A stretch of DNA of 24,000 nucleotides from an uncultured Fibrobacterota bacterium (GTDB lineage Bacteria > Fibrobacterota > Chitinivibrionia > Chitinivibrionales > Chitinispirillaceae). The translations under genes and the position numbers were made by a program. Below are positions 2,617 to 24,000 of this stretch, in pieces; position 1 is the first letter of the stretch; the number at the start of each line of letters is the position of its first letter. Where the stretch lies: the NCBI GenBank assembly GCA_963846695.1, contig CAWJXL010000002.1, forward strand, positions 257,728-281,727, in the 5' to 3' direction. The notes under the pieces were generated by a model. That model was not told the DNA's origin. It was given only the letters and a program-made list of their open reading frames with translations, and ran no database searches.

Positions 2617-3468
2617 TTACGCGCTTTTCAGGGTATCAAAAAACGGGGAAAGGAGCGATCGGGACATCGGATTTCGCAGGAGATGACGCAGGGCCTTGTC
2701 GCGGAGCAACCGTACACGCTCCCTGGTGAGATTGATCTCGACGCCGATCTCCTCAAGAGTAAAATGACGAGTTGCATTGAGCCCGAAGTACATCCGGAGA
2801 ATGCGTTCTTCACGAATAGGAACTTCCCGGAGCAGACGGTCGATGGTCACCCCCAGTTCACGCCGGTCGCTGTCGGCCTCTTGGTTGGGCTCTTCGCCGA
2901 GAACATCGGCAAGGGTTTTTGCGCCGTCGCCGCTGTTATCGGACCCATGCGGCGAGGGATTCAACGGTGTATCGAAGGAAATCGCCTTGAACTTCGACAT
3001 GACCTCGACAATGTCGGTCTCATGTAGTCTGAACTCCTCCCGCATGATGGTGCCGTAATAATCGCCCCGGTTCCGGTCCATGGCCCGCTTGAAATCCCGC
3101 AACAGAGCGACCTTGTTGAGAGGGATCCGCACAAGGCCGGTCTGTTCGAAAAGCGCTTTCTGCATGGATTGGCGGATCCACCATACTGCATAGGAGATGA
3201 ACTTTACTTCCATGGCGAGGTTGAAGCGCTTCGCTGCCTTGATGAGGCCGATGTTGCCTTCGTTGATGAGATCCAGGTAGGCGATGCCGTGTCCGCGATA
3301 GCTTCTGGCCACGCTGACGACAAAGCGTAGATTCGCCGTAACGAGTTCATCGGCGGTACCGGGCTCATCGCGCTGTACACGCACTATGAGCGCCCGTTCC
3401 TCTTTTTCAGAAAGAACCTTGAATCGGTTGATATCCCGGAAATAGAGCGTTTCCGTTGTCAATTGCAT
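2617..3468 (-). CDS. RNA polymerase sigma factor, sigma-70 family (short RpoD-like format, 283 aa)
   Basis: Region 2 is seen in LRFVVSVARSY, DLINEGNIGLIKAAKRF and FISYAVWWIRQS. Region 4.2 HTH is seen in FTLEEIGVEINLTRERVRLLRDKALRHL. Confidence 0.9.
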   Translation of the reverse strand: MQLTTETLYFRDINRFKVLSEKEERALIVRVQRDEPGTADELVTANLRFVVSVARSYRGHGIAYLDLINEGNIGLIKAAKRFNLAMEVKFISYAVWWIRQSMQKALFEQTGLVRIPLNKVALLRDFKRAMDRNRGDYYGTIMREEFRLHETDIVEVMSKFKAISFDTPLNPSPHGSDNSGDGAKTLADVLGEEPNQEADSDRRELGVTIDRLLREVPIREERILRMYFGLNATRHFTLEEIGVEINLTRERVRLLRDKALRHLLRNPMSRSLLSPFFDTLKSA

Positions 3469-5012: not shown

Positions 5013-5837
5013 CTATTTCCAGGCTATCGCAGCATAATTTCGTTTCGGAATCCGGTAGAAACGGGCGGCAGGATACCCGAGCATCATGGAGCCGAATACT
5101 GCCTGATCTGGGGGCAAGTCGAGCAATGCTTTTACCGCGGGCGATGCGGATGCCGCAATGGTAAAGTACCCGGCCCAGCACGTCCCCAGGCCGAACGCCG
5201 GGGCTGCCAGCTCAAGATAAGTCAGGGCAATGGTTGCGTCGCCCGCCGCGATGCGGTCCGCACTCTGGCCACAGGCCAGCACGAGGTGCGGCGCATTCCG
5301 GCAGATCGGGTCGTTCCCCTCTCGCCACGATTGAAGGAGAAGGCTGAAATTCAGTTTTCCCGCCATAAGCGACTTCTGCTGTTCCGACTCATCCATCCAC
5401 GTCATGACGGCATTGGTCAACTGCCGCACCTTCGATGTATCGTGGACCACGATCCATTTCACCGGCTGCCGATTGACGCCGGAGGGCGCGTAGCGAACGA
5501 TATCGAAGAGATTTGCTAAAATCGACCGGTCAACCGGCTCCTGCCTGTATTTCCTGACCGAGCGGCGTTCAAGGCAGTATGCGGCAAGTTGCGCCGGGGT
5601 GATGCCGTCGTGAGGTCCTGGTTCCGGAACACTTTGCAGAGTGGGGTGGTCGACCGTTACTGCGTTCTCGGGGCAGGCTGCTTCGCAGTGACCGCAGCGA
5701 ACGCAGACAGCGACGAGGCGATCGGAAACATACGGGAAACCGGTCTCCTCATTTTTCCGGATGATTCGCAGGGGACACAGTTCGAGGCAGATCATGCAGC
5801 GGGTGCATTTTGCGGTATCAAAGGAATTTTGCGGCAT
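5013..5837 (-). CDS. nitroreductase family protein with N-terminal 2x[4Fe-4S] ferredoxin domain
   Basis: Two ferredoxin cysteine clusters (CTRCMICLELCP, CVRCGHCEAACP) are followed by a nitroreductase-type region (RRSVRKYRQEPV, APSGVNRQP). Confidence 0.85.
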   Translation of the reverse strand: MPQNSFDTAKCTRCMICLELCPLRIIRKNEETGFPYVSDRLVAVCVRCGHCEAACPENAVTVDHPTLQSVPEPGPHDGITPAQLAAYCLERRSVRKYRQEPVDRSILANLFDIVRYAPSGVNRQPVKWIVVHDTSKVRQLTNAVMTWMDESEQQKSLMAGKLNFSLLLQSWREGNDPICRNAPHLVLACGQSADRIAAGDATIALTYLELAAPAFGLGTCWAGYFTIAASASPAVKALLDLPPDQAVFGSMMLGYPAARFYRIPKRNYAAIAWK

Positions 5838-16380: not shown

Positions 16381-16413
16381 AACGCCATTAGAACGGCATT
16401 AAAACGGCCTGCC
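16381..16413. repeat. about 2.5 tandem copies of an 11-bp unit (AACGCCATTAG / AACGGCATTAA / AACGGCctgcc)
   Basis: Read directly from the sequence. The 11-bp spacing is about one helical turn. The third copy shares only its first 6 nt. Confidence 0.5.
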
Positions 16414-16503
16414 TTTCCACGCCCCCGCCGCCGGAAAAGCATTGCAATCGGATCATGAGCATTTCAGCGATCACCTGAATGCAGATCGCCGGCTTCCACG
16501 GCG

Positions 16504-16647: not shown

Positions 16648-16989
16648 TCACAAGGTACAGATTGCGCCGAGACGGTCCTCAAGGAGCTTTTGCGCGGCGT
16701 ACAGGTCCCGCAGTTTCTCCTTGCCGAAATCCCTGGCCTTGATCGCCTCGCGCACTTTCGCAAGCTGCGCGCCGACCTCTTCCACCTTGCCTAACTGGTT
16801 GATGCCGAACTTTTCGAGCGACTCTTCAAGCATCGCTCGATGCGCCGCCCAGACGTCTTCTTTCAGGGCTTGGGCCCAGTACTGGAGGGTCCGGCGGGAG
16901 ACTTTCAACTGCTCCGCGATTTTGGGGAACGATATTCCCCGCGCACGCAGTTGGATGAATTGTTCCTTCAAATCACGCGAGTACGACAT
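16648..16989 (-). CDS. small helix-turn-helix DNA-binding protein, function unknown
   Basis: The N-terminal FIQLRARGISFPKIAEQLKVSRRTLQYW looks like a resolvase/terminase-small/IS-type HTH, and the rest is predicted helical. GC is backbone-like (about 58% in one counted line). Confidence 0.55.
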   Translation of the reverse strand: MSYSRDLKEQFIQLRARGISFPKIAEQLKVSRRTLQYWAQALKEDVWAAHRAMLEESLEKFGINQLGKVEEVGAQLAKVREAIKARDFGKEKLRDLYAAQKLLEDRLGAICTL

Positions 16990-17263
16990 GGACGACTTAT
17001 CCTTTCAATCCCCTTTGTTTGGTTTTTCTATCAGTCCGGCACTGCCGCTATGCCGGAAAAAGAGATTTAGACATCGCCATTCAGCTTCAGCCTGTTTCTT
17101 GAAAAGCGACCCTATGGCCGGATATGGCGATGACAGGTGATAATATACTATATTCTCTATTAACAATCACACCCACCTCTGCAACACATTTATTATCAAT
17201 ATGTTATGTATTTGCCGGAATAGCATTTAAGAGGTCTTAATAAGAGTAGCTAAAGAGGCATGA

Positions 17264-17279
17264 AAACATCTAGATGTTT
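17264..17279. repeat. perfect 16-bp palindrome AAACATCTAGATGTTT in a non-coding gap
   Basis: Read directly from the sequence. It is a candidate dimeric-regulator site, and its function is unknown. Confidence 0.5.
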
Positions 17280-17625
17280 AGAAGAATTGCAAATTTTTAA
17301 GGGTTTCTAGGAAAAATGGGTCTAAAGGTGTAGATTCTGATTTTCCAATGTAATTTGGTCTTCGGTGTGTCCATTACTTCGGGTACCGTTCGCTTCTGGT
17401 GCTTGTTCACGCTGCTTTAATATCCCGGTCGTACTTATCTCAAAGAATCTTGCGCTTTTCTATCTATTGCCTCCGCATTTTACGATATGTAATATCGTTC
17501 ACGCGGCCAAAAAGGTAAAGACGCCGTTGGCAGGAGGCTTACTGGGTAGGTGAGTTTGGCCGATATTCAATTCACCATTAAATACAGTTTTCTATTAACG
17601 TGCTGCAATATAAGGCAACACCGGG

Positions 17626-18042
17626 TTATTCAACCGGCAGCATCGTCCCTAATGTTAAACCCGATATCCCACCGATTATCGCCCAAGGCCCACCAATCAA
17701 TTTTCCGATGCCGAGCCCGGCGACGCAACATAGAAGGATATTAATTGTTTGCTTCTCCTGCTTACGTTCGAAGGAAAGAGGTGCTCGCGTTTGCCCATGC
17801 CACCTGCGCGCAGTGCGAGTGGACCTCGTGCCCTTCTCAAGATTGCAAGGAATACAGGCAGGCAGGAGATTGGTGAGGCGGTCCGAACCGCCTTGTGATT
17901 TGGGAACCGAATGATCGATATGCCACGCACCGCGGAAGCTATAGTCACCATAATTTGAAAAAGCCAGATTCTTTCTACATATATGGCAACGTCCATCCGT
18001 TTTATTAAAAATCACGTTTAGCATCTCATTATCAATGAGCAT
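17626..18042 (-). CDS. HNH endonuclease with C-terminal glycine-zipper/transmembrane tail
   Basis: HNH motifs are CHIC...WHIDHSVPKSQGGSD...NLLPACIPCNLEKG. The C-terminal 35 aa ILLCCVAGLGIGKLIGGPWAIIGGISGLTLGTML are hydrophobic with repeated GxxxG. GGAGGG lies upstream of the ATG. Confidence 0.8.
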   Translation of the reverse strand: MLIDNEMLNVIFNKTDGRCHICRKNLAFSNYGDYSFRGAWHIDHSVPKSQGGSDRLTNLLPACIPCNLEKGTRSTRTARRWHGQTRAPLSFERKQEKQTINILLCCVAGLGIGKLIGGPWAIIGGISGLTLGTMLPVE

Positions 18043-18099
18043 ACACCCTCCGGGAATTAAAAATGCTTCAAGAAAAAAATAGTTTGCTGCAAAAAGGTT

Positions 18100-18393
18100 T
18101 TATTTTTTGCCGCATGTCTCGCTGACATTTGCCGATACGAGTTTTGTTGAATCACCTACCTCAAGGGATTTACCCTTTTCTGCATTATGAGATTTGCACA
18201 AGGGAACAATGTACCAACTATTATCCGTTGAGTTATCCTTCTGCACATGTGCACCCACCTCAGTTTTTTCATAGCAGCTTAATACCGGGCAATAGATGGA
18301 AATTGATAGTCCGCTAAATTTTTTCCAATGATCAAGCCAACTTCCACATTTGCAGGTATTATCACTTGTTCCATTAATATTTCTTATTTTCAT
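18100..18393 (-). CDS. Cys/His-rich 97-aa protein with His-Me-finger-like signature (putative minimal HNH-type nuclease or zinc-binding protein)
   Basis: The pattern CKCGSWLDHW...CPVLSC...GAHV...YIVPLCKSHNAEKG resembles a beta-beta-alpha-metal finger with flanking zinc ligands. AAGGAG lies upstream of the ATG, and the gene ends 57 nt upstream of the HNH gene. Confidence 0.6.
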   Translation of the reverse strand: MKIRNINGTSDNTCKCGSWLDHWKKFSGLSISIYCPVLSCYEKTEVGAHVQKDNSTDNSWYIVPLCKSHNAEKGKSLEVGDSTKLVSANVSETCGKK

Positions 18394-18503
18394 ACGATTC
18401 TCCTTAATCTTCAGATTGATGTTAATTTTTCATTTCCCAAAGCTGGGTGAACTTGAAAATGCAAGGTTATTGAACTGATTTTTCCGATAAAATCCAAAGA
18501 CGA

Positions 18504-18704
18504 TTATCCTTTGGGTCTGTCACCTTCGCGGATTTGACCATTCCGGCGGTGTATGAAGAGTTCTGTGTGCTGATTCTGGGCAATACTACGAGCGGCATCG
18601 ATGGCTTCGCCTTGCGTCGTATAAAAAGAAGTCATGCGTTCGCTGCCTTCCGCCCTGATTCCCCACTGACCATCTGACGGTACAACATGCTGGTTTCTCC
18701 CCAT
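18504..18704 (-). CDS. DUF2188 domain-containing protein
   Basis: HVVPSDGQWGIRAEGSERMTSFYTTQGEAIDAARSIAQNQHTELFIHRRNGQI matches the DUF2188 pattern as I recall it. AAGGAG lies upstream of the ATG. Confidence 0.72.
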   Translation of the reverse strand: MGRNQHVVPSDGQWGIRAEGSERMTSFYTTQGEAIDAARSIAQNQHTELFIHRRNGQIREGDRPKG

Positions 18705-18750
18705 GATATGCTCCTTTTAAAGGTTTTCGGGGATGTTATCGATTGGCCTT

Positions 18751-18779
18751 AATATATATTTTGAGTGATCTATTGGCAA
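18751..18779 (-). promoter_or_regulatory. candidate sigma-70 promoter for the minus-strand cassette (TTGCCA-N17-TATATT)
   Basis: The hexamers and the 17-nt spacer were counted directly on the reverse complement. The -10 element is about 45 nt upstream of ATG 18704. Confidence 0.45.
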
Positions 18780-18801
18780 CAATTATTAGAGTTTGTATTA
18801 T
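18773..18801 (+). promoter_or_regulatory. candidate sigma-70 promoter for the XRE-ImmA-MTase operon (TTGGCA-N17-TATTAT)
   Basis: The hexamers and spacer were counted directly. Its -35 element overlaps the -35 of the divergent promoter within TTGGCAA at 18773-18779. Confidence 0.45.
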
Positions 18802-18806
18802 CTTAC

Positions 18807-18821
18807 GTTGGTAGAGCCAAC
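18807..18821. promoter_or_regulatory. operator-like inverted repeat GTTGG-N5-CCAAC just downstream of the -10 element
   Basis: Read directly from the sequence. It sits at the predicted transcription start of the XRE operon. Further TTGGC half-sites lie at about 18743, 18773 and 18834. Confidence 0.35.
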
Positions 18822-18864
18822 TTTTCCCATTGCTTGGCTTGATTCAACATTTTATTTTGATTGC

Positions 18865-19230
18865 ATGCCCCGTGGAAATAGAATCGAGAAGGTTTTTACA
18901 CTCATTGGCAAGAAAATCAGATCTGCACGATCAAAAACAGATTTATCCCAGGATGATCTTGCAGCAAAGGTCAAGCTTGAACGTTCTTCAATAGTCCTCA
19001 TAGAGAGCGGAAAGCAAAGGCTTCCCATTGACCGGCTCTATCTCGTTGCGCGTGAACTTGGGACAACACCGCAAAAACTACTGCCGGAAATGAAAGAAAT
19101 TTTTGAGGAAGCCGATATGGAAAATCCCGCAGTTACTATTCATGGCGGAACTATAGAAGGCAAGAATGAAATGGGAAAGAAGATATTAAAAATGCTTGAA
19201 CAGCAGAAAGGCGGAGGTAAACATACATGA
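18865..19230 (+). CDS. XRE-family helix-turn-helix transcriptional regulator
   Basis: IGKKIRSARSKTDLSQDDLAAKVKLERSSIVLIESGKQRLPIDRLYLVARELG is a classic HTH_3/XRE domain. I chose ATG 18865 over TTG 18793 because the predicted promoter lies inside the longer ORF. Confidence 0.85.
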   Translation: MPRGNRIEKVFTLIGKKIRSARSKTDLSQDDLAAKVKLERSSIVLIESGKQRLPIDRLYLVARELGTTPQKLLPEMKEIFEEADMENPAVTIHGGTIEGKNEMGKKILKMLEQQKGGGKHT

Positions 19231-19757
19231 GAAAAGACACGGTTGAAAGGAAGGCTCGTCTTCTTATCAACAAATGCAACATCAAGACTCCCCCTGTGGA
19301 CATAGTAATTATCGCTAATGGTTTGGATGTCCGCGTTACTAAGGCCAATCTACCTGATGATATTTCCGGCGTTTTGCAGAAGAATGCAACAGGAATAAGC
19401 ACAATAATGGTCAACAACGAGCATGCACCTGTTCGGCAGCGTTTCACCATTGCACATGAATTGGGGCACTACCTTCTTTCAGATAAAACAGGAGTCATTA
19501 TAGATCAGGCGATTTATTTTCGAGACTCACGGTCACAGGAAGCCGCCGATTATGATGAAATAGTTGCTAACACCTTTGCAGCGGAATTGCTGATGCCTAC
19601 ACCATTTGTTAAAAGTGCAATAAGCCGGATAATCAGCGGAGGCAGACTCAATGCACGCGATGACCTGATAAAAATGCTTGCCGATGATTTCAATGTCAGT
19701 ACAACCGCAATGAGCATAAAATTGCAAAATCTTGGATACCGTTTCTCGGTAGCTTAA
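19227..19757 (+). CDS. ImmA/IrrE-family zinc metallopeptidase
   Basis: HEXXH is present in FTIAHELGHYLL. The size and downstream EAADYDEIVANTFAAELLMP are typical of the family. It overlaps the XRE gene stop through ATGA. Confidence 0.88.
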   Translation: MRKDTVERKARLLINKCNIKTPPVDIVIIANGLDVRVTKANLPDDISGVLQKNATGISTIMVNNEHAPVRQRFTIAHELGHYLLSDKTGVIIDQAIYFRDSRSQEAADYDEIVANTFAAELLMPTPFVKSAISRIISGGRLNARDDLIKMLADDFNVSTTAMSIKLQNLGYRFSVA

Positions 19758-19774
19758 ACTGCAAGGCACCTACT

Positions 19775-22672
19775 ATGCCCAATAAGCGCTCCATTATCTC
19801 CACGTTCTCCCGCGCAACGCTTCTCGAAATTGCCCGCTCTTTTGAACTGCCGGGCCTTACCTCAAAGCCGAAAGAAGAAATCCTCGCTGCCCTCATGGGA
19901 AAACGAACTGCAACGATTGAAGAGATATTGAACACCCTGTCGGTAGCGGATATTAAGGCGATCTGCAAGGAATTCTCGATTCCCACCGGGTCGGCGAAGA
20001 AAGACGATCTTGTTGCAAGGCTCCTGAACGGCGAAGCCGGGGACCCGGAAGAAAACCTGGGTCCTAAAGGTAAGCCGCCGCAACCCGAAAAAACGACGCC
20101 AAAAAACTCAAATCAAAAAACCGGATTTCCTATGCCTAAAAGCGATTCAAACGGCAAGCCTATTGAACAATATACCCACGATAAGGAAGAACGGCTCAAT
20201 AACCCGCCGGTGGGTCTTGTGACCCCGCAGACCGATAAAGACGGCGCAAAGAAGAAATACGCCTACGACCCCCACCTTGACCCGCAGCTCCAATGGGCCG
20301 GGAAAGCCGAGCATACCAGCTTCGAAGTACCGACCGTGAGCCTGCACGTACACGAGCGGATCGACCCGAAGAGAATAATAGAACAGATTAAAAAAGAAGA
20401 GAAAAAAGACTCTGAACAAATTTCAATGTTCGAAACGCAGGAGCGGCCGCTCCGGGAAGCCATAGAATTTTATAAACATAAAGACGGATGGACCAACAGG
20501 CTCATTGCCGGTGATTCACTGCTTGTAATGAATTCGTTACTGGAAAAAGAGGGAATGGGCGGGAAGGTGCAGATGGTGTATTTTGACCCGCCGTATGGAA
20601 TCACATATAAAAGTAATTTTCAACCATTTACCAACAAAAAGGAAGTAAAAGATACCGATAATGATTTAGCTACTGAACCTGAAACGATCAAGGCATTTCG
20701 GGATACTTGGGAATTAGGAATTCACTCTTATCTGACTTACCTGCGCGACAGAATATTGCTCGCAAAAATGCTTATATCAGATTCTGGGTGCATATGTTTG
20801 CAGATGAATTCAGAAAATGTCGCCATTACTCGATTGCTTCTTGACGAGATATTTGGCATAAATAACTTGGTTGCCGATATCGTTTTTCGGAAAAAAAGCC
20901 TACCTCTCGGCGCCAAATACGTTGAGACAATGCACGATCACATTCTTTGCTATGCCAAGGATAAAGACCAATTTAAGTATCGCCAACTTTTTCAATATAT
21001 GGATGAGGTAACAAGTCATTGGAGATTCGCTTTACTACCAAATGGGGAAATCCTTCGAATTGCACCTCAGGAATTTCGTTCACCGCAACATCCGAAGGGC
21101 ACAAGATATTATCGGTTGTTCTCTCTAATTGCGCCTTCTTACAGCGCGAACACGGATTTCGTTTATAAATATAAGGGCAAAGAATATCGTCCACCGAGTA
21201 ATGGGTCATGGGTAGTAGACAAACAAAAGCTTGATAAGCTTGCTTTAATTGAAAGGCTTGAAATTGAAGGAAGCAGCATAAGTTATCGATTATTCTTTGA
21301 TGATTTTCCTTATCGAAAGCTTACAAACCTTTGGCTCGATGTTGCGGTATCCTACCAAAAGTTATATGCAGTCCAGACTACTGAGCAGGTAATTTCTCGC
21401 TGTTTATTAATGACCACCGATCCCGGCGATCTCGTCCTCGATATCACTTGCGGTTCCGGTACATCCGCATATGTCGCCGAACAGTGGGGCCGCCGCTGGG
21501 TCACCTGCGACACCTCCCGCGTCGCTATCACCCTCGCAAAACAGCGTCTCATGTCGGCTGTTTACGATTATTATGAGCTTGCGCAACCAGCAGAAGGAAT
21601 TTCCTCGGGCTTCAAATACAAAACGGTTCCGCACATCACGCTCAAGTCCATCGCCAATAACGAGCCCGCAGTCCCGGAGACTCTTTACGACCAGCCTTTA
21701 ATCGACACGAAAAGAAAGCGCGTCACCGGCCCCTTTACCGTCGAAGCCGTCCCCGCCCCTACGGTCAAATCCTTCGACGATATAGAGTCCGAAAACACCG
21801 GAGTTTCCGATACCTCGGTCGCCCGTTCCGGCGAGACCTTGCGGCAGTCGGAGTGGCGGGAAGAACTGCTCCGCACCGGGGTGCGCGGCAAGAACGGGCA
21901 GTATATTAAATTCAGCCGGATCGAGCCGATGAGCGGCACCCGGCATTTGCAGGCCGAAGGGGAAACGAAGTGGTCGGATGCCGGGGCAAATACGGTTCGC
22001 GAAGAGCCGAAGGAGTGGCGACCGCAACGGGTTTTAATCTGCTTCGGCCCGGAACATGCGCCGCTCGAACGGCGGACGGTAGAAAACGCCTGGCAGGAGG
22101 CGCGACCATTCAAGCCGGATATTCTGCTTTTCTGCGCTTTTCAGTTTGACGAAGAGGCGGCAAAGGATATCGACGAGCTAAAGCCGGAAATTGCCGGAAT
22201 GCAACTTCTGAAGGTGCAGATGAACGCTGATTTATTAACCGACGATCTTCGCAAGAAGCGGTCGAGCAATGAGAGCTTCTGGCTCATCGGGCAACCGGAC
22301 GTTGAATTGCGGGAGATCAAAAAGGGCGAACACAAGGGGAAGTATGAGATCGAGGTTTTGGGATTCGATTACTACAACCCGAAAACCGGGGTGGTCGAAT
22401 CAGGCGGCAAGCATCAGATTGCCATGTGGATGCTCGATACCGATTACGACGGAAGAAGCCTTTTCCCCTCTCAGGTATTTTTCCCCATGGCCGGGGAAAG
22501 CGAGGGGTGGGCGACACTCGCGCGAAATCTCCGCGCGGAAATCGATGAGGAAAAAATGGAAGCTTTTCGCGGCACGGTTTCGTTGCCCTTCAGCGCAGCC
22601 AGTGGGAAACAAGCGGCGGTGAAAATCGTGGATGACAGGGGAATTGAAAGCTTGAAGATTGTGAGGATATAG
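19775..22672 (+). CDS. site-specific DNA methyltransferase, beta-class N6A/N4C family, type III Mod-like, 965 aa with N-terminal tandem SAP/HeH-like motifs and a long C-terminal extension
   Basis: Motif IV, VQMVYFDPPYGI (DPPY at 20585-20596), precedes motif I, LVLDITCGSGTSAYVAEQWGRRWVTCD (about 21434-21500). The conserved blocks YDPHLDPQLQWAGK and MWMLDTDYDGRSLFPSQVFFPMAG are those I associate with long Mod-like enzymes. Confidence 0.92.
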   Translation: MPNKRSIISTFSRATLLEIARSFELPGLTSKPKEEILAALMGKRTATIEEILNTLSVADIKAICKEFSIPTGSAKKDDLVARLLNGEAGDPEENLGPKGKPPQPEKTTPKNSNQKTGFPMPKSDSNGKPIEQYTHDKEERLNNPPVGLVTPQTDKDGAKKKYAYDPHLDPQLQWAGKAEHTSFEVPTVSLHVHERIDPKRIIEQIKKEEKKDSEQISMFETQERPLREAIEFYKHKDGWTNRLIAGDSLLVMNSLLEKEGMGGKVQMVYFDPPYGITYKSNFQPFTNKKEVKDTDNDLATEPETIKAFRDTWELGIHSYLTYLRDRILLAKMLISDSGCICLQMNSENVAITRLLLDEIFGINNLVADIVFRKKSLPLGAKYVETMHDHILCYAKDKDQFKYRQLFQYMDEVTSHWRFALLPNGEILRIAPQEFRSPQHPKGTRYYRLFSLIAPSYSANTDFVYKYKGKEYRPPSNGSWVVDKQKLDKLALIERLEIEGSSISYRLFFDDFPYRKLTNLWLDVAVSYQKLYAVQTTEQVISRCLLMTTDPGDLVLDITCGSGTSAYVAEQWGRRWVTCDTSRVAITLAKQRLMSAVYDYYELAQPAEGISSGFKYKTVPHITLKSIANNEPAVPETLYDQPLIDTKRKRVTGPFTVEAVPAPTVKSFDDIESENTGVSDTSVARSGETLRQSEWREELLRTGVRGKNGQYIKFSRIEPMSGTRHLQAEGETKWSDAGANTVREEPKEWRPQRVLICFGPEHAPLERRTVENAWQEARPFKPDILLFCAFQFDEEAAKDIDELKPEIAGMQLLKVQMNADLLTDDLRKKRSSNESFWLIGQPDVELREIKKGEHKGKYEIEVLGFDYYNPKTGVVESGGKHQIAMWMLDTDYDGRSLFPSQVFFPMAGESEGWATLARNLRAEIDEEKMEAFRGTVSLPFSAASGKQAAVKIVDDRGIESLKIVRI

Positions 22673-22674
22673 CG

Positions 22675-24000
22675 ATGAACGGACAAAATCGGTTTGAGCC
22701 TATCGAACAGGCGCTTCTAAAACCGGCAGGTGCGCGGTTTTGGAAATGCGCCTTGCAAATTAATCCTTTTGATTATGCAAAGAATTTCCAAGGAGACAAA
22801 TCTGTCCAAAGCGAAGATGCCTATAATCGTGCTTTATGTGATGCATGCGTTACAAATAAAGTGGAAATTGTTGGCATTGCCGATCACGGCTCGGTTGAAA
22901 GGATCGATAATCTTCGTGCTATTCTTGAAAAGGTCTCTATTTGCGTTTTCCCTGGCTTCGAAATTGCAAGCACCGAAAAGATACATATGGTTTGCCTTTT
23001 TGAGCCCGGCACCCCGATAACAACTCTCAATCGGTATCTTGGAAATCTGGATATGACTGATTCTTCTGACCCAGTGCACCCATCAAATTTTAGCTGCCTT
23101 GAGTTAGGAAAAAAAATTCTTGATCTGGGCGGTATCTGGTATGCCGCACATATGACAGGGAATAACGGCTTATTAAAACTTGATGGCCCCGGAGATAATT
23201 ATAAGCATATCTGGGAAAATGAACATATAGTTCTTGCAGGTCAGATTCCCGGTTTGAAAAAAGATCTCCCGGAAAACTATTTGAAAATAATTGACAATAT
23301 TAACGTTGATTATTATCGCAACAGGAAAATTGCGGTTATTAATGCCAGAGATGTTTTCTTGCCGGAGGACATTTCGAATGCATCTTCCACCTGCCACATA
23401 AAAATGACTTTGCCGAGCATTGAAGCGCTGAAACAGGCATTTTTTGATCCTGAATCAAGAATCCGTCTGCAAGCCGAAATCGAGCATCACCCACCATCCA
23501 GAATTATCGCCATTGCCTGGGAAGGTAATTTTCTCGATGGAATCAGAATACATTTAGGCGAGAATCTTAATGCCTTGATTGGAGGACGCGGAACCGGAAA
23601 ATCCACCATAATCGAAACAATCCGATACGCATTTAATAAAGCTCCCCTTGGTGAGGAAGCCCGTAAAGCTTGTCTTGAAATTCTTAAATCAAATATGGGT
23701 TCTGGGACGCAGGTTAGCCTGAAAATTGCATCCCAGACAAGGCTCGGAAAAGAGTTCATAATTCGTCGTCGGTTTGGAGATCCTCCGGAGGTTTTTGATG
23801 ATGCGGGTATGCTCTCTCAATTTTCTCCTAATGAATTAATGCCAGGACTTCAAATTCTTGGCCAAAATGAAATAATTGAAATTGCGCGCAACACTGCAAG
23901 CCAGTATGAACTAATTAAAAAATTTATTCCCGACAGTGCTGCGCTTCAAAAACGGATTGCCGAAATACGAAAAAAACTTTCGGATAATCGAATGCGGCTT
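22675..24000 (+). CDS. PHP-like phosphoesterase domain fused to SMC/ABC-type (AAA-like) ATPase; 3' end beyond window
   Basis: My own translation from ATG 22675 (2 nt after the MTase stop) runs 442 codons without a stop to the window end. PHP-like blocks are VEIVGIADHGS, VFPGFEIAS, IHMVCLF and WYAAHM. The ATPase head has NLNALIGGRGTGKSTIIETIRYAF (Walker A at 23581-23607), followed by LGQNEIIE and a helical, coiled-coil-like stretch. Confidence 0.85.
   Translation, partial: MNGQNRFEPIEQALLKPAGARFWKCALQINPFDYAKNFQGDKSVQSEDAYNRALCDACVTNKVEIVGIADHGSVERIDNLRAILEKVSICVFPGFEIASTEKIHMVCLFEPGTPITTLNRYLGNLDMTDSSDPVHPSNFSCLELGKKILDLGGIWYAAHMTGNNGLLKLDGPGDNYKHIWENEHIVLAGQIPGLKKDLPENYLKIIDNINVDYYRNRKIAVINARDVFLPEDISNASSTCHIKMTLPSIEALKQAFFDPESRIRLQAEIEHHPPSRIIAIAWEGNFLDGIRIHLGENLNALIGGRGTGKSTIIETIRYAFNKAPLGEEARKACLEILKSNMGSGTQVSLKIASQTRLGKEFIIRRRFGDPPEVFDDAGMLSQFSPNELMPGLQILGQNEIIEIARNTASQYELIKKFIPDSAALQKRIAEIRKKLSDNRMRL

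Follow-up and report, generated by a model that had tools for sequence, protein, structure and literature searches.

Do three small genes that share a strand, short gaps and an upstream control region amount to one system? The locus that raises the question lies in a 24,000-nucleotide stretch of DNA from an uncultured Fibrobacterota bacterium (contig CAWJXL010000002.1, positions 257,728 to 281,727 of the forward strand), which we call the window. Its minus strand encodes, in the order of transcription, a 66-residue DUF2188 protein (18504..18704), a 97-residue protein that we name p97 (18100..18393) and a 138-residue HNH nuclease with a C-terminal membrane tail, which we call HNH-tail (17626..18042). 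An earlier reading of the same DNA, made from its letters alone (the sequence-only reading), had described three small minus-strand genes with strong ribosome-binding sites, oriented divergently from an XRE operon and sharing its control region, and this description holds: the open reading frames are confirmed, AAGGAG stands 7 nt ahead of the DUF2188 and p97 starts and GGAGG 5 nt ahead of the HNH-tail start, and gene order and strands confirm the divergence. It had also proposed that the three genes could form a unit of toxin/immunity or abortive-infection type.

Our comparison across genomes leads elsewhere. The three adjacent genes are not one system, and what they appear to represent is a set of interchangeable miniature effectors guarded by a damage-sensing repressor/protease pair. 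The reading that we favour, with confidence a little better than even, is that the cassette is a composite: at the border of a defence island, a few miniature effector genes in a row stand under the guard of a damage-responsive XRE and M78 pair of CapH/CapP-like type, DUF2188 followed by the tail-anchored HNH is the part of the row that recurs, and p97 is a separate mobile gene that has a His-Me-like core.

The three genes do not recur as a unit

Two surveys bear on the question, one starting from each of the two putative nuclease genes. The p97 survey rests on a scan of one genome per species, which gave 53 loci, and reaches 55 independent loci once metagenomic contexts are included; the HNH-tail survey covers 74 distinct loci (numbered, like the p97 loci, with the prefix L), 48 of which have enough flanking sequence for upstream regulators to be counted. 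Neighbours were called with a simple open-reading-frame finder and a few phmmer seeds, and the counts are lower bounds. The p97 gene occurs in 0 of the 74 HNH-tail loci, and 0 of the 55 p97 loci carry both DUF2188 and HNH-tail beside p97. Taken singly, DUF2188 adjoins p97 in two of the 55 loci (L039 and L065), upstream of it in both, and an HNH gene related to the window's does so in three. The company that p97 keeps is otherwise highly variable: the 37 next genes on the same strand belong to 36 different clusters, and in a Pfam tally of 42 same-strand neighbours HNH is the sole family seen more than once, the others being mostly unannotated or of defence type (HaeII, HsdR, an OLD-like ATPase). 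The sequence-only reading was to fail if the three genes did not co-occur elsewhere; in these two surveys they do not, the three-gene reading is refuted on its own terms, and DUF2188, p97 and HNH-tail are not a fixed three-gene system.

A recurrent core of DUF2188 and a tail-anchored HNH nuclease

The 138-residue protein is a member of the HNH endonucleases (PF01844, E-value 3.4e-9, 37.2 bits against a cut-off of 21.4). It carries the motif CxxC...DH...N...CxxCN, and residues C19, C22, H44, N58, C63, C66 and N67, which cover the catalytic His and Asn positions and four zinc ligands, are all present and conserved in its family. Family members are about 140 residues long, and in them a TRTAR..TRAPLS segment and a glycine-zipper tail accompany the conserved HNH core. 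In the window protein the hydropathy profile places this hydrophobic, glycine-rich tail at residues ~100-137, some 38 residues in all, and several homologues match Gly-zipper_YMGG. The HNH-tail protein is the likely effector.

What accompanies it? DUF2188 stands directly upstream of the HNH-tail gene in at least 8 of the 74 loci and DUF3892 in 5-6, with gaps mostly of -6 to +30 bp; tight coupling of DUF2188 to HNH-tail at this spacing, such as a type II toxin-antitoxin pair would show, is seen in L104, L115, L156, L157 and L176. In the window the two genes are separated by 461 bp that hold p97, flanked by gaps of 110 and 57 bp. XRE and/or M78 genes are present no more than 2.6 kb upstream of the HNH-tail gene in 17 of the 48 loci with sufficient flank, 11 of the 17 being divergent. 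Loci that pair DUF3892 with HNH-tail and loci that combine HNH-tail with an E2/E1/JAB system were also found, L097 being of the latter type.

The closest relative of the window's arrangement is L098 (2307-4432), which repeats its layout: an M78-XRE pair, with M78 as short as in the window, divergent from DUF2188, a middle gene and HNH-tail. The L098 middle gene encodes, instead of p97, a 128-residue Hjc-like protein, possibly of the PD-(D/E)xK type, at an E-value of 0.0017 that is below the cut-off, and its HNH-tail gene is apparently frameshifted before the membrane tail. Because L098 has a different middle gene, we read the middle position, occupied by p97 in the window, as a variable slot. 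A protein of 232-245 residues ending in a SEC-C motif lies between XRE and HNH-tail genes in L158 (2935-3633, with both XRE and M78) and L132 (2295-3032), and is another recurrent occupant of HNH-tail operons. The type of mini-HNH gene that follows p97 in some loci also precedes HNH-tail genes in L152 and L166.

The sequence-only reading assigned the gene that opens the leftward operon to DUF2188, and the assignment is borne out by the profile PF09954 (E-value 5.6e-22, 78.1 bits against a cut-off of 22) and by the PADLOC candidate PDC-S16 (E-value 1.5e-26). DUF2188 has been linked to PDB entry 5JN6 and to HicB antitoxins (PMC13621843); in our direct sequence search of the PDB, 5JN6 was insignificant, at an E-value of 0.9. 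DUF3892, in turn, is in the reading of Aravind's group a sensor domain of dsRBD/HPF-like type that is joined to effectors. We regard the DUF2188 protein as a putative small dsRBD/HicB-like sensor, adaptor or antitoxin, which may either sense or restrain the nuclease.

A CapH/CapP-like pair across a divergent control region

Facing this operon on the plus strand are an XRE-family, CapH-like repressor gene (18793..19230; HTH_19, E-value 1.5e-9; capH, E-value 2.6e-11), whose true start codon is probably the ATG at 18865, and an M78 metallopeptidase gene of CapP/ImmA-like type (19227..19757; Peptidase_M78, E-value 3.4e-19; capP, E-value 1.1e-31), which overlaps the XRE stop codon. The layout is that of CapH/CapP-type loci, with XRE and M78 upstream of, and on the opposite strand to, an operon led by DUF2188. 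The 160 bp between DUF2188 and the likely XRE start (18705..18864) hold two back-to-back promoter-like sites, TTGCCA-17-TATATT on the minus strand (18779->18751) and TTGGCA-17-TATTAT on the plus strand (18773->18801), which are consensus matches only and score 10/12 each. Between them lie 13-nt direct repeats, GTTATCGATTGGC at 18735-18747 and GTGATCTATTGGC at 18765-18777, and the region may serve as the operator. Inside the leftward operon, a weak terminator-like hairpin (18494..18514, minus strand) stands just past DUF2188 and a promoter-like site (18425->18397, minus strand) ahead of p97, both likewise no more than consensus matches; together they are compatible with p97 having expression signals of its own.

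By analogy with work on CapH/CapP, a course of events can be proposed. The XRE protein would repress the back-to-back promoters until DNA damage or phage infection activated the M78 protease, which would cleave the repressor; DUF2188, p97 and the HNH-tail protein would then be made, and the HNH-tail protein, perhaps together with p97, would cut DNA at or near the membrane, with the result that the phage is restricted or the infected cell killed.

p97 is a mobile gene of its own

Several lines of evidence set p97 apart from its neighbours. Its GC content is 0.381 (0.347 at third codon positions), compared with 0.522 and 0.487 in the genes on either side; a search of 6 genomes of the same genus found no copy, and among 40 relatives there was a single weak match. 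Homologues at 47-76% identity occur in Zixibacteria, Saccharibacteria and other Patescibacteria, Proteobacteria, Acidobacteriota, Bacteroidota, Planctomycetota and two archaeal lineages, a cross-phylum pattern that points to horizontal spread. The p97 gene is a separate acquisition, an independently mobile stand-alone gene.

The family to which it belongs is very large (1330 clusters at 90% identity, 1363 representatives at 50% identity), almost all of its members being about 96 residues long, and it has no match among Pfam, NCBIfam, PHROG or PADLOC models. Cultured plasmid and phage collections each yielded one weak homologue, both unannotated.

Where does such a gene settle? In six of the 55 loci it is divergent from XRE-M78 pairs, and in one of these, L041, it is the sole gene behind the pair; in four Patescibacteria loci (L034, L035, L048 and L052) it is divergent from LexA-like S24 repressors. 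It thus lies behind self-cleaving or protease-cleaved repressors in 10 of the 55 loci, in addition to the window. The Patescibacteria repressors combine LexA_DNA_bind with Peptidase_S24, the LexA-like protein of L048 being fused to a Dam-type methylase, and the intergenic region between p97 and the LexA-like gene is conserved among L034, L035 and L052. Small nucleases are frequent company: tiny HNH genes follow p97 in about 7 loci, GIY-YIG-like genes with borderline Pfam scores occur nearby, and on phage contigs p97 stands beside homing endonuclease genes. On the IMG/VR phage contigs L073, L074, L082 and L084, of about 80-160 kb, variants with a single zinc site are each a lone gene on the plus strand, transcribed away from GIY-YIG/HNH homing endonuclease genes.

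A further vehicle is suggested by imperfect, attC-like hairpins closed by TAAC...GTTA that directly follow p97 homologues in L028 (~3000-3090), L033 (~1600-1700) and L026 (~5300-5380), so that p97 is probably an integron-type cassette in at least 2-3 loci; the attC score is crude and separated the clearest cases only. A search around the window's p97 found no attC site, and the window copy is not assigned to integron cassettes. Taken together, these contexts fit a self-contained, tightly repressed, mobile effector, and an inhibitor or binding factor is compatible with them too.

A predicted two-zinc protein with a His-Me-like core

The sequence-only reading had picked out a GAHV...PLCKSHN motif in the 97-residue protein, which is indeed present. 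Eight residues are essentially invariant across the family (C14, C16, H22, C35, C40, C66, H/C69 and C94, position 69 being H or C only), and all eight are zinc-type ligands. From this pattern p97 probably binds two zinc ions at two sites, one of them built from the N- and C-termini. Its core, C-x4-C ... GAHV ... PLC-x2-[HC]-N (or C..C..GAHV..PLCxxHN), has a His-Me-like appearance, and distant phage variants that lose zinc site 1 keep exactly this part, as C..C..GAHV..WYIVPLCxxCN. Two further residues stand out: among 108 representatives position 49 is His in 81% and position 70 is Asn in 79%, and losses of the two are correlated.

Two AlphaFold models are confident, with confidence scores (pLDDT) of 90.5 (AF2) and 85.2. 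They predict a strand-strand-helix unit at 46-52 / 61-65 / 67-70, with H49 on a strand and [H/C]69-N70 on the short helix, which would place H49 and N70 as in a beta-beta-alpha-metal site. The median isoelectric point of the family is 8.2. In P0126, P0130 and P0170 two p97 domains stand in tandem (185-231 residues), a duplication suggesting that single-domain p97 may act as a dimer.

Among candidates set aside, matches to caspase-6 and to a cytokine receptor in the PDB searches, run with single sequences and with profiles, are at chance level, and the TT_ORF2-like PF02957 match seen in 29 of 57 members covers only a short CxC..W..HW motif, falls below the cut-off and was treated as coincidence. 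The N-terminal extensions of longer members hold no domains and look like over-called starts.

The island setting

The cassette lies at the left edge of a low-GC island of about 20 kb (GC 0.40-0.50, against 0.56-0.63 elsewhere). Rightward of XRE and M78 the island holds a 965-residue Type III-like methylase with a SAP domain at its N-terminus, a TrlF-family AAA ATPase of 900 residues, an AlbA_2/HATPase_c_4 protein and a ResIII helicase of 926 residues, with an ABC-3C-type gene farther along. The XRE-M78 pair, in other words, also heads a same-strand methylase operon, and the row of XRE, M78, methylase, ATPase, AlbA_2/HATPase_c_4 protein and helicase (window 18793-24000 together with L002 1-8140) suggests a restriction-like system with a CapH/CapP-type pair at its head. 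On the minus strand of L002 (12440-15173) a 580-residue DUF2326/CTD10 protein of ABC-3C type adjoins a 256-residue protein with weak HNH_2/HNH matches; this gene pair, at the island's right end, resembles another defence-type module. Of the proposed toxin/immunity or abortive-infection unit, then, the defence-flavoured setting has held up, with its capH/capP matches, methylase, TrlF ATPase, ResIII helicase and ABC-3C gene, but the trio as a unit has not.

The left boundary has some features of its own. Between a conserved PEBP gene and the low-GC cassette lies a gene for a 113-residue HTH_23-type protein (window 16648-16989, minus strand) with host-like GC of 0.576, followed by about 480 bp of AT-rich non-coding DNA (17150-17625). 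A direct repeat of 14 bp, GCCTGCCTTTCCAC, lies close to each of the island's GC transitions, at 16407-16420 in the window and 15508-15521 in L002; its significance is weak (E-value 0.015 in a small search), and GCCTGCCTTTCCAC could be an attachment-site duplication. We sought the empty site in five same-genus genomes and did not recover it, the left flank being conserved to about 16311 and the right flank not adjacent. An Rfam scan of the window gave no match.

Weighing the explanations

How far can the nuclease identity of p97 be taken? Motif and predicted fold together make it plausible, the core most resembling a zinc-stabilised His-Me (beta-beta-alpha-metal) nuclease, and we place the chance that the protein is an active nuclease just short of even. 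The sequence-only reading had counted two likely nucleases in the cassette; the canonical HNH enzyme of 138 residues is one, but the 97-residue protein, for all its His-Me-like motif and predicted secondary structure, has yielded no significant profile or fold match. A number of results weigh against the composite that we favour, most of them on this point. Profile searches of the PDB gave Hpy99I as the best match at an E-value of 0.27 and the HNH protein 4H9D at 0.4-1.2, none significant; PF16786 was matched by 2 of 57 members at an E-value of 0.014, below the cut-off; hhalign of p97 against the HNH-tail family aligned the expected motif with a P of only 0.11; Foldseek with the two models found no match with an E-value below 1 in the PDB or BFVD; and significant sequence-profile similarity to any His-Me family was not found. 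H49 and N70, moreover, are not invariant, and the tandem members P0130 and P0170 lack both, so the scaffold could serve a non-catalytic role. Two further points concern regulation: the XRE-M78 pair may primarily regulate the same-strand methylase operon, and the terminator-like hairpin after DUF2188 and the promoter-like site before p97 could uncouple p97 from the XRE-controlled promoter. A rival account takes p97 for a zinc-stabilised nucleic-acid- or protein-binding factor carried on mobile elements, which might act as an anti-defence protein or anti-repressor, or might inhibit adjoining small nucleases or lend them specificity. Under that account it is natural that the fully conserved residues are zinc ligands while the would-be catalytic His and Asn vary and tandem fusions dispense with them, that no nuclease fold or profile is matched, and that the gene is found in integron-type cassettes, phages and a plasmid, often next to nuclease genes in the manner of an inhibitor. 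Most p97 loci, however, have no adjacent nuclease; the position of p97 as sole cargo in L041 better fits a self-sufficient, tightly repressed effector; the phage variants that shed the rest of the protein keep just the His, the Asn and zinc site 2; and the two residues tend to be lost together. We consider a non-nuclease p97 a serious minority possibility.

The remaining accounts concern the cassette as a whole. That DUF2188, p97 and HNH-tail make up a dedicated three-component toxin/immunity or abortive-infection system with mutually needed parts is close to refuted and, in our judgement, very improbable: common orientation, short gaps, strong ribosome-binding sites and a common upstream control region would all suit it, as would the same three-slot layout in L098, but the trio is found nowhere else in either survey, the middle gene of L098 is not p97, and p97 differs in composition from both its neighbours. 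Somewhat less remote, but still unlikely, is that an integrative mobile element has the XRE-M78 pair as its ImmR/ImmA-type switch, and that the three genes belong to its early or cargo set, without a role in defence. XRE plus M78 is the ImmR/ImmA architecture as well (Lau et al., bioRxiv 10.1101/2022.04.27.489752), the low-GC island is flanked by the 14-bp repeat, and in same-genus genomes the conserved left flank is not followed by it; against this, the island has yielded no gene for an integrase, an excisionase, replication or transfer, its other genes are of defence type, from the Type III-like methylase to the ABC-3C gene, and the repeat is weak.

A broader and more doubtful proposal, which we would put forward only tentatively, is that the p97 family represents unrecognised, minimal (~96 residues), two-zinc His-Me nucleases, self-sufficient single-gene effectors silenced by damage-sensing repressors of XRE/M78 or LexA-like type and spreading among phyla of bacteria and archaea, in phages and in integron cassettes. 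Rows of miniature nucleases behind such switches (p97, mini-HNH, GIY-YIG, Hjc-like and HNH-tail) might then constitute unnamed, inducible defence modules, each a 'nuclease arsenal'. Whatever its activity, p97 belongs to a very large, cross-domain, unannotated family whose fold is predicted with confidence and for which we detected no structural relative; the small size of the protein should allow rapid biochemical and structural tests.

Comparison with known systems

Among nucleases, the nearest counterparts of p97 are the zinc-containing His-Me enzymes: T4 endonuclease VII, Hpy99I and McrA-type HNH proteins (3FC3, 4H9D). T4 endonuclease VII has the same CxxCN (C-x2-C-N) arrangement, and p97 likewise has a Cys pair, then a His, then C-x2-[C/H]-N, with the Asn directly after the last zinc ligand; its sole recurring sub-threshold database matches are to this class. 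Unlike these enzymes, p97 has a second zinc site and no significant sequence or structural match, its His is not at a D/H-H dipeptide, and its His and Asn are not invariant. The comparison with integron gene cassettes is similarly divided: the hairpins in L028, L033 and L026 fit the variable same-strand neighbours and cross-phylum spread of p97, whereas the window copy, in its gaps of 110 and 57 bp, has no flanking attC-like site.

The DUF2188 protein matches the PDC-S16 models, and its gene lies tightly upstream of an effector-like gene, in the position of an antitoxin or sensor. PDC-S16 is listed as a single-gene candidate, whereas here and in at least 8 loci it is paired with an HNH-tail gene.

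The closest published relatives of the locus as a whole are the CapH/CapP operons. Lau et al. 2022 (bioRxiv 10.1101/2022.04.27.489752, Fig. 6F) described CapH/CapP-like pairs transcribed away from operons that encode DUF2188 or DUF3892 proteins, and reported such regulators with an E2/E1/JAB system too. The window shares with them an XRE repressor and an M78 metallopeptidase that match PADLOC capH and capP and are divergent from a DUF2188-first operon. As partners, that work names cyclases, a protein with cyclic-nucleotide-binding (cNMP-binding) and TIR domains, and hypothetical proteins; it names neither the tail-anchored HNH nor the p97 family, and the window's regulators head a same-strand methylase/ATPase/helicase operon as well. 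The comparison supports the view that the regulated nuclease/defence module is a variant of this published operon class. To the DUF2188 and DUF3892 operons, uncharacterised in the literature, it supplies a concrete candidate effector, the tail-anchored HNH nuclease, and the newest element of the cassette is the p97 family.

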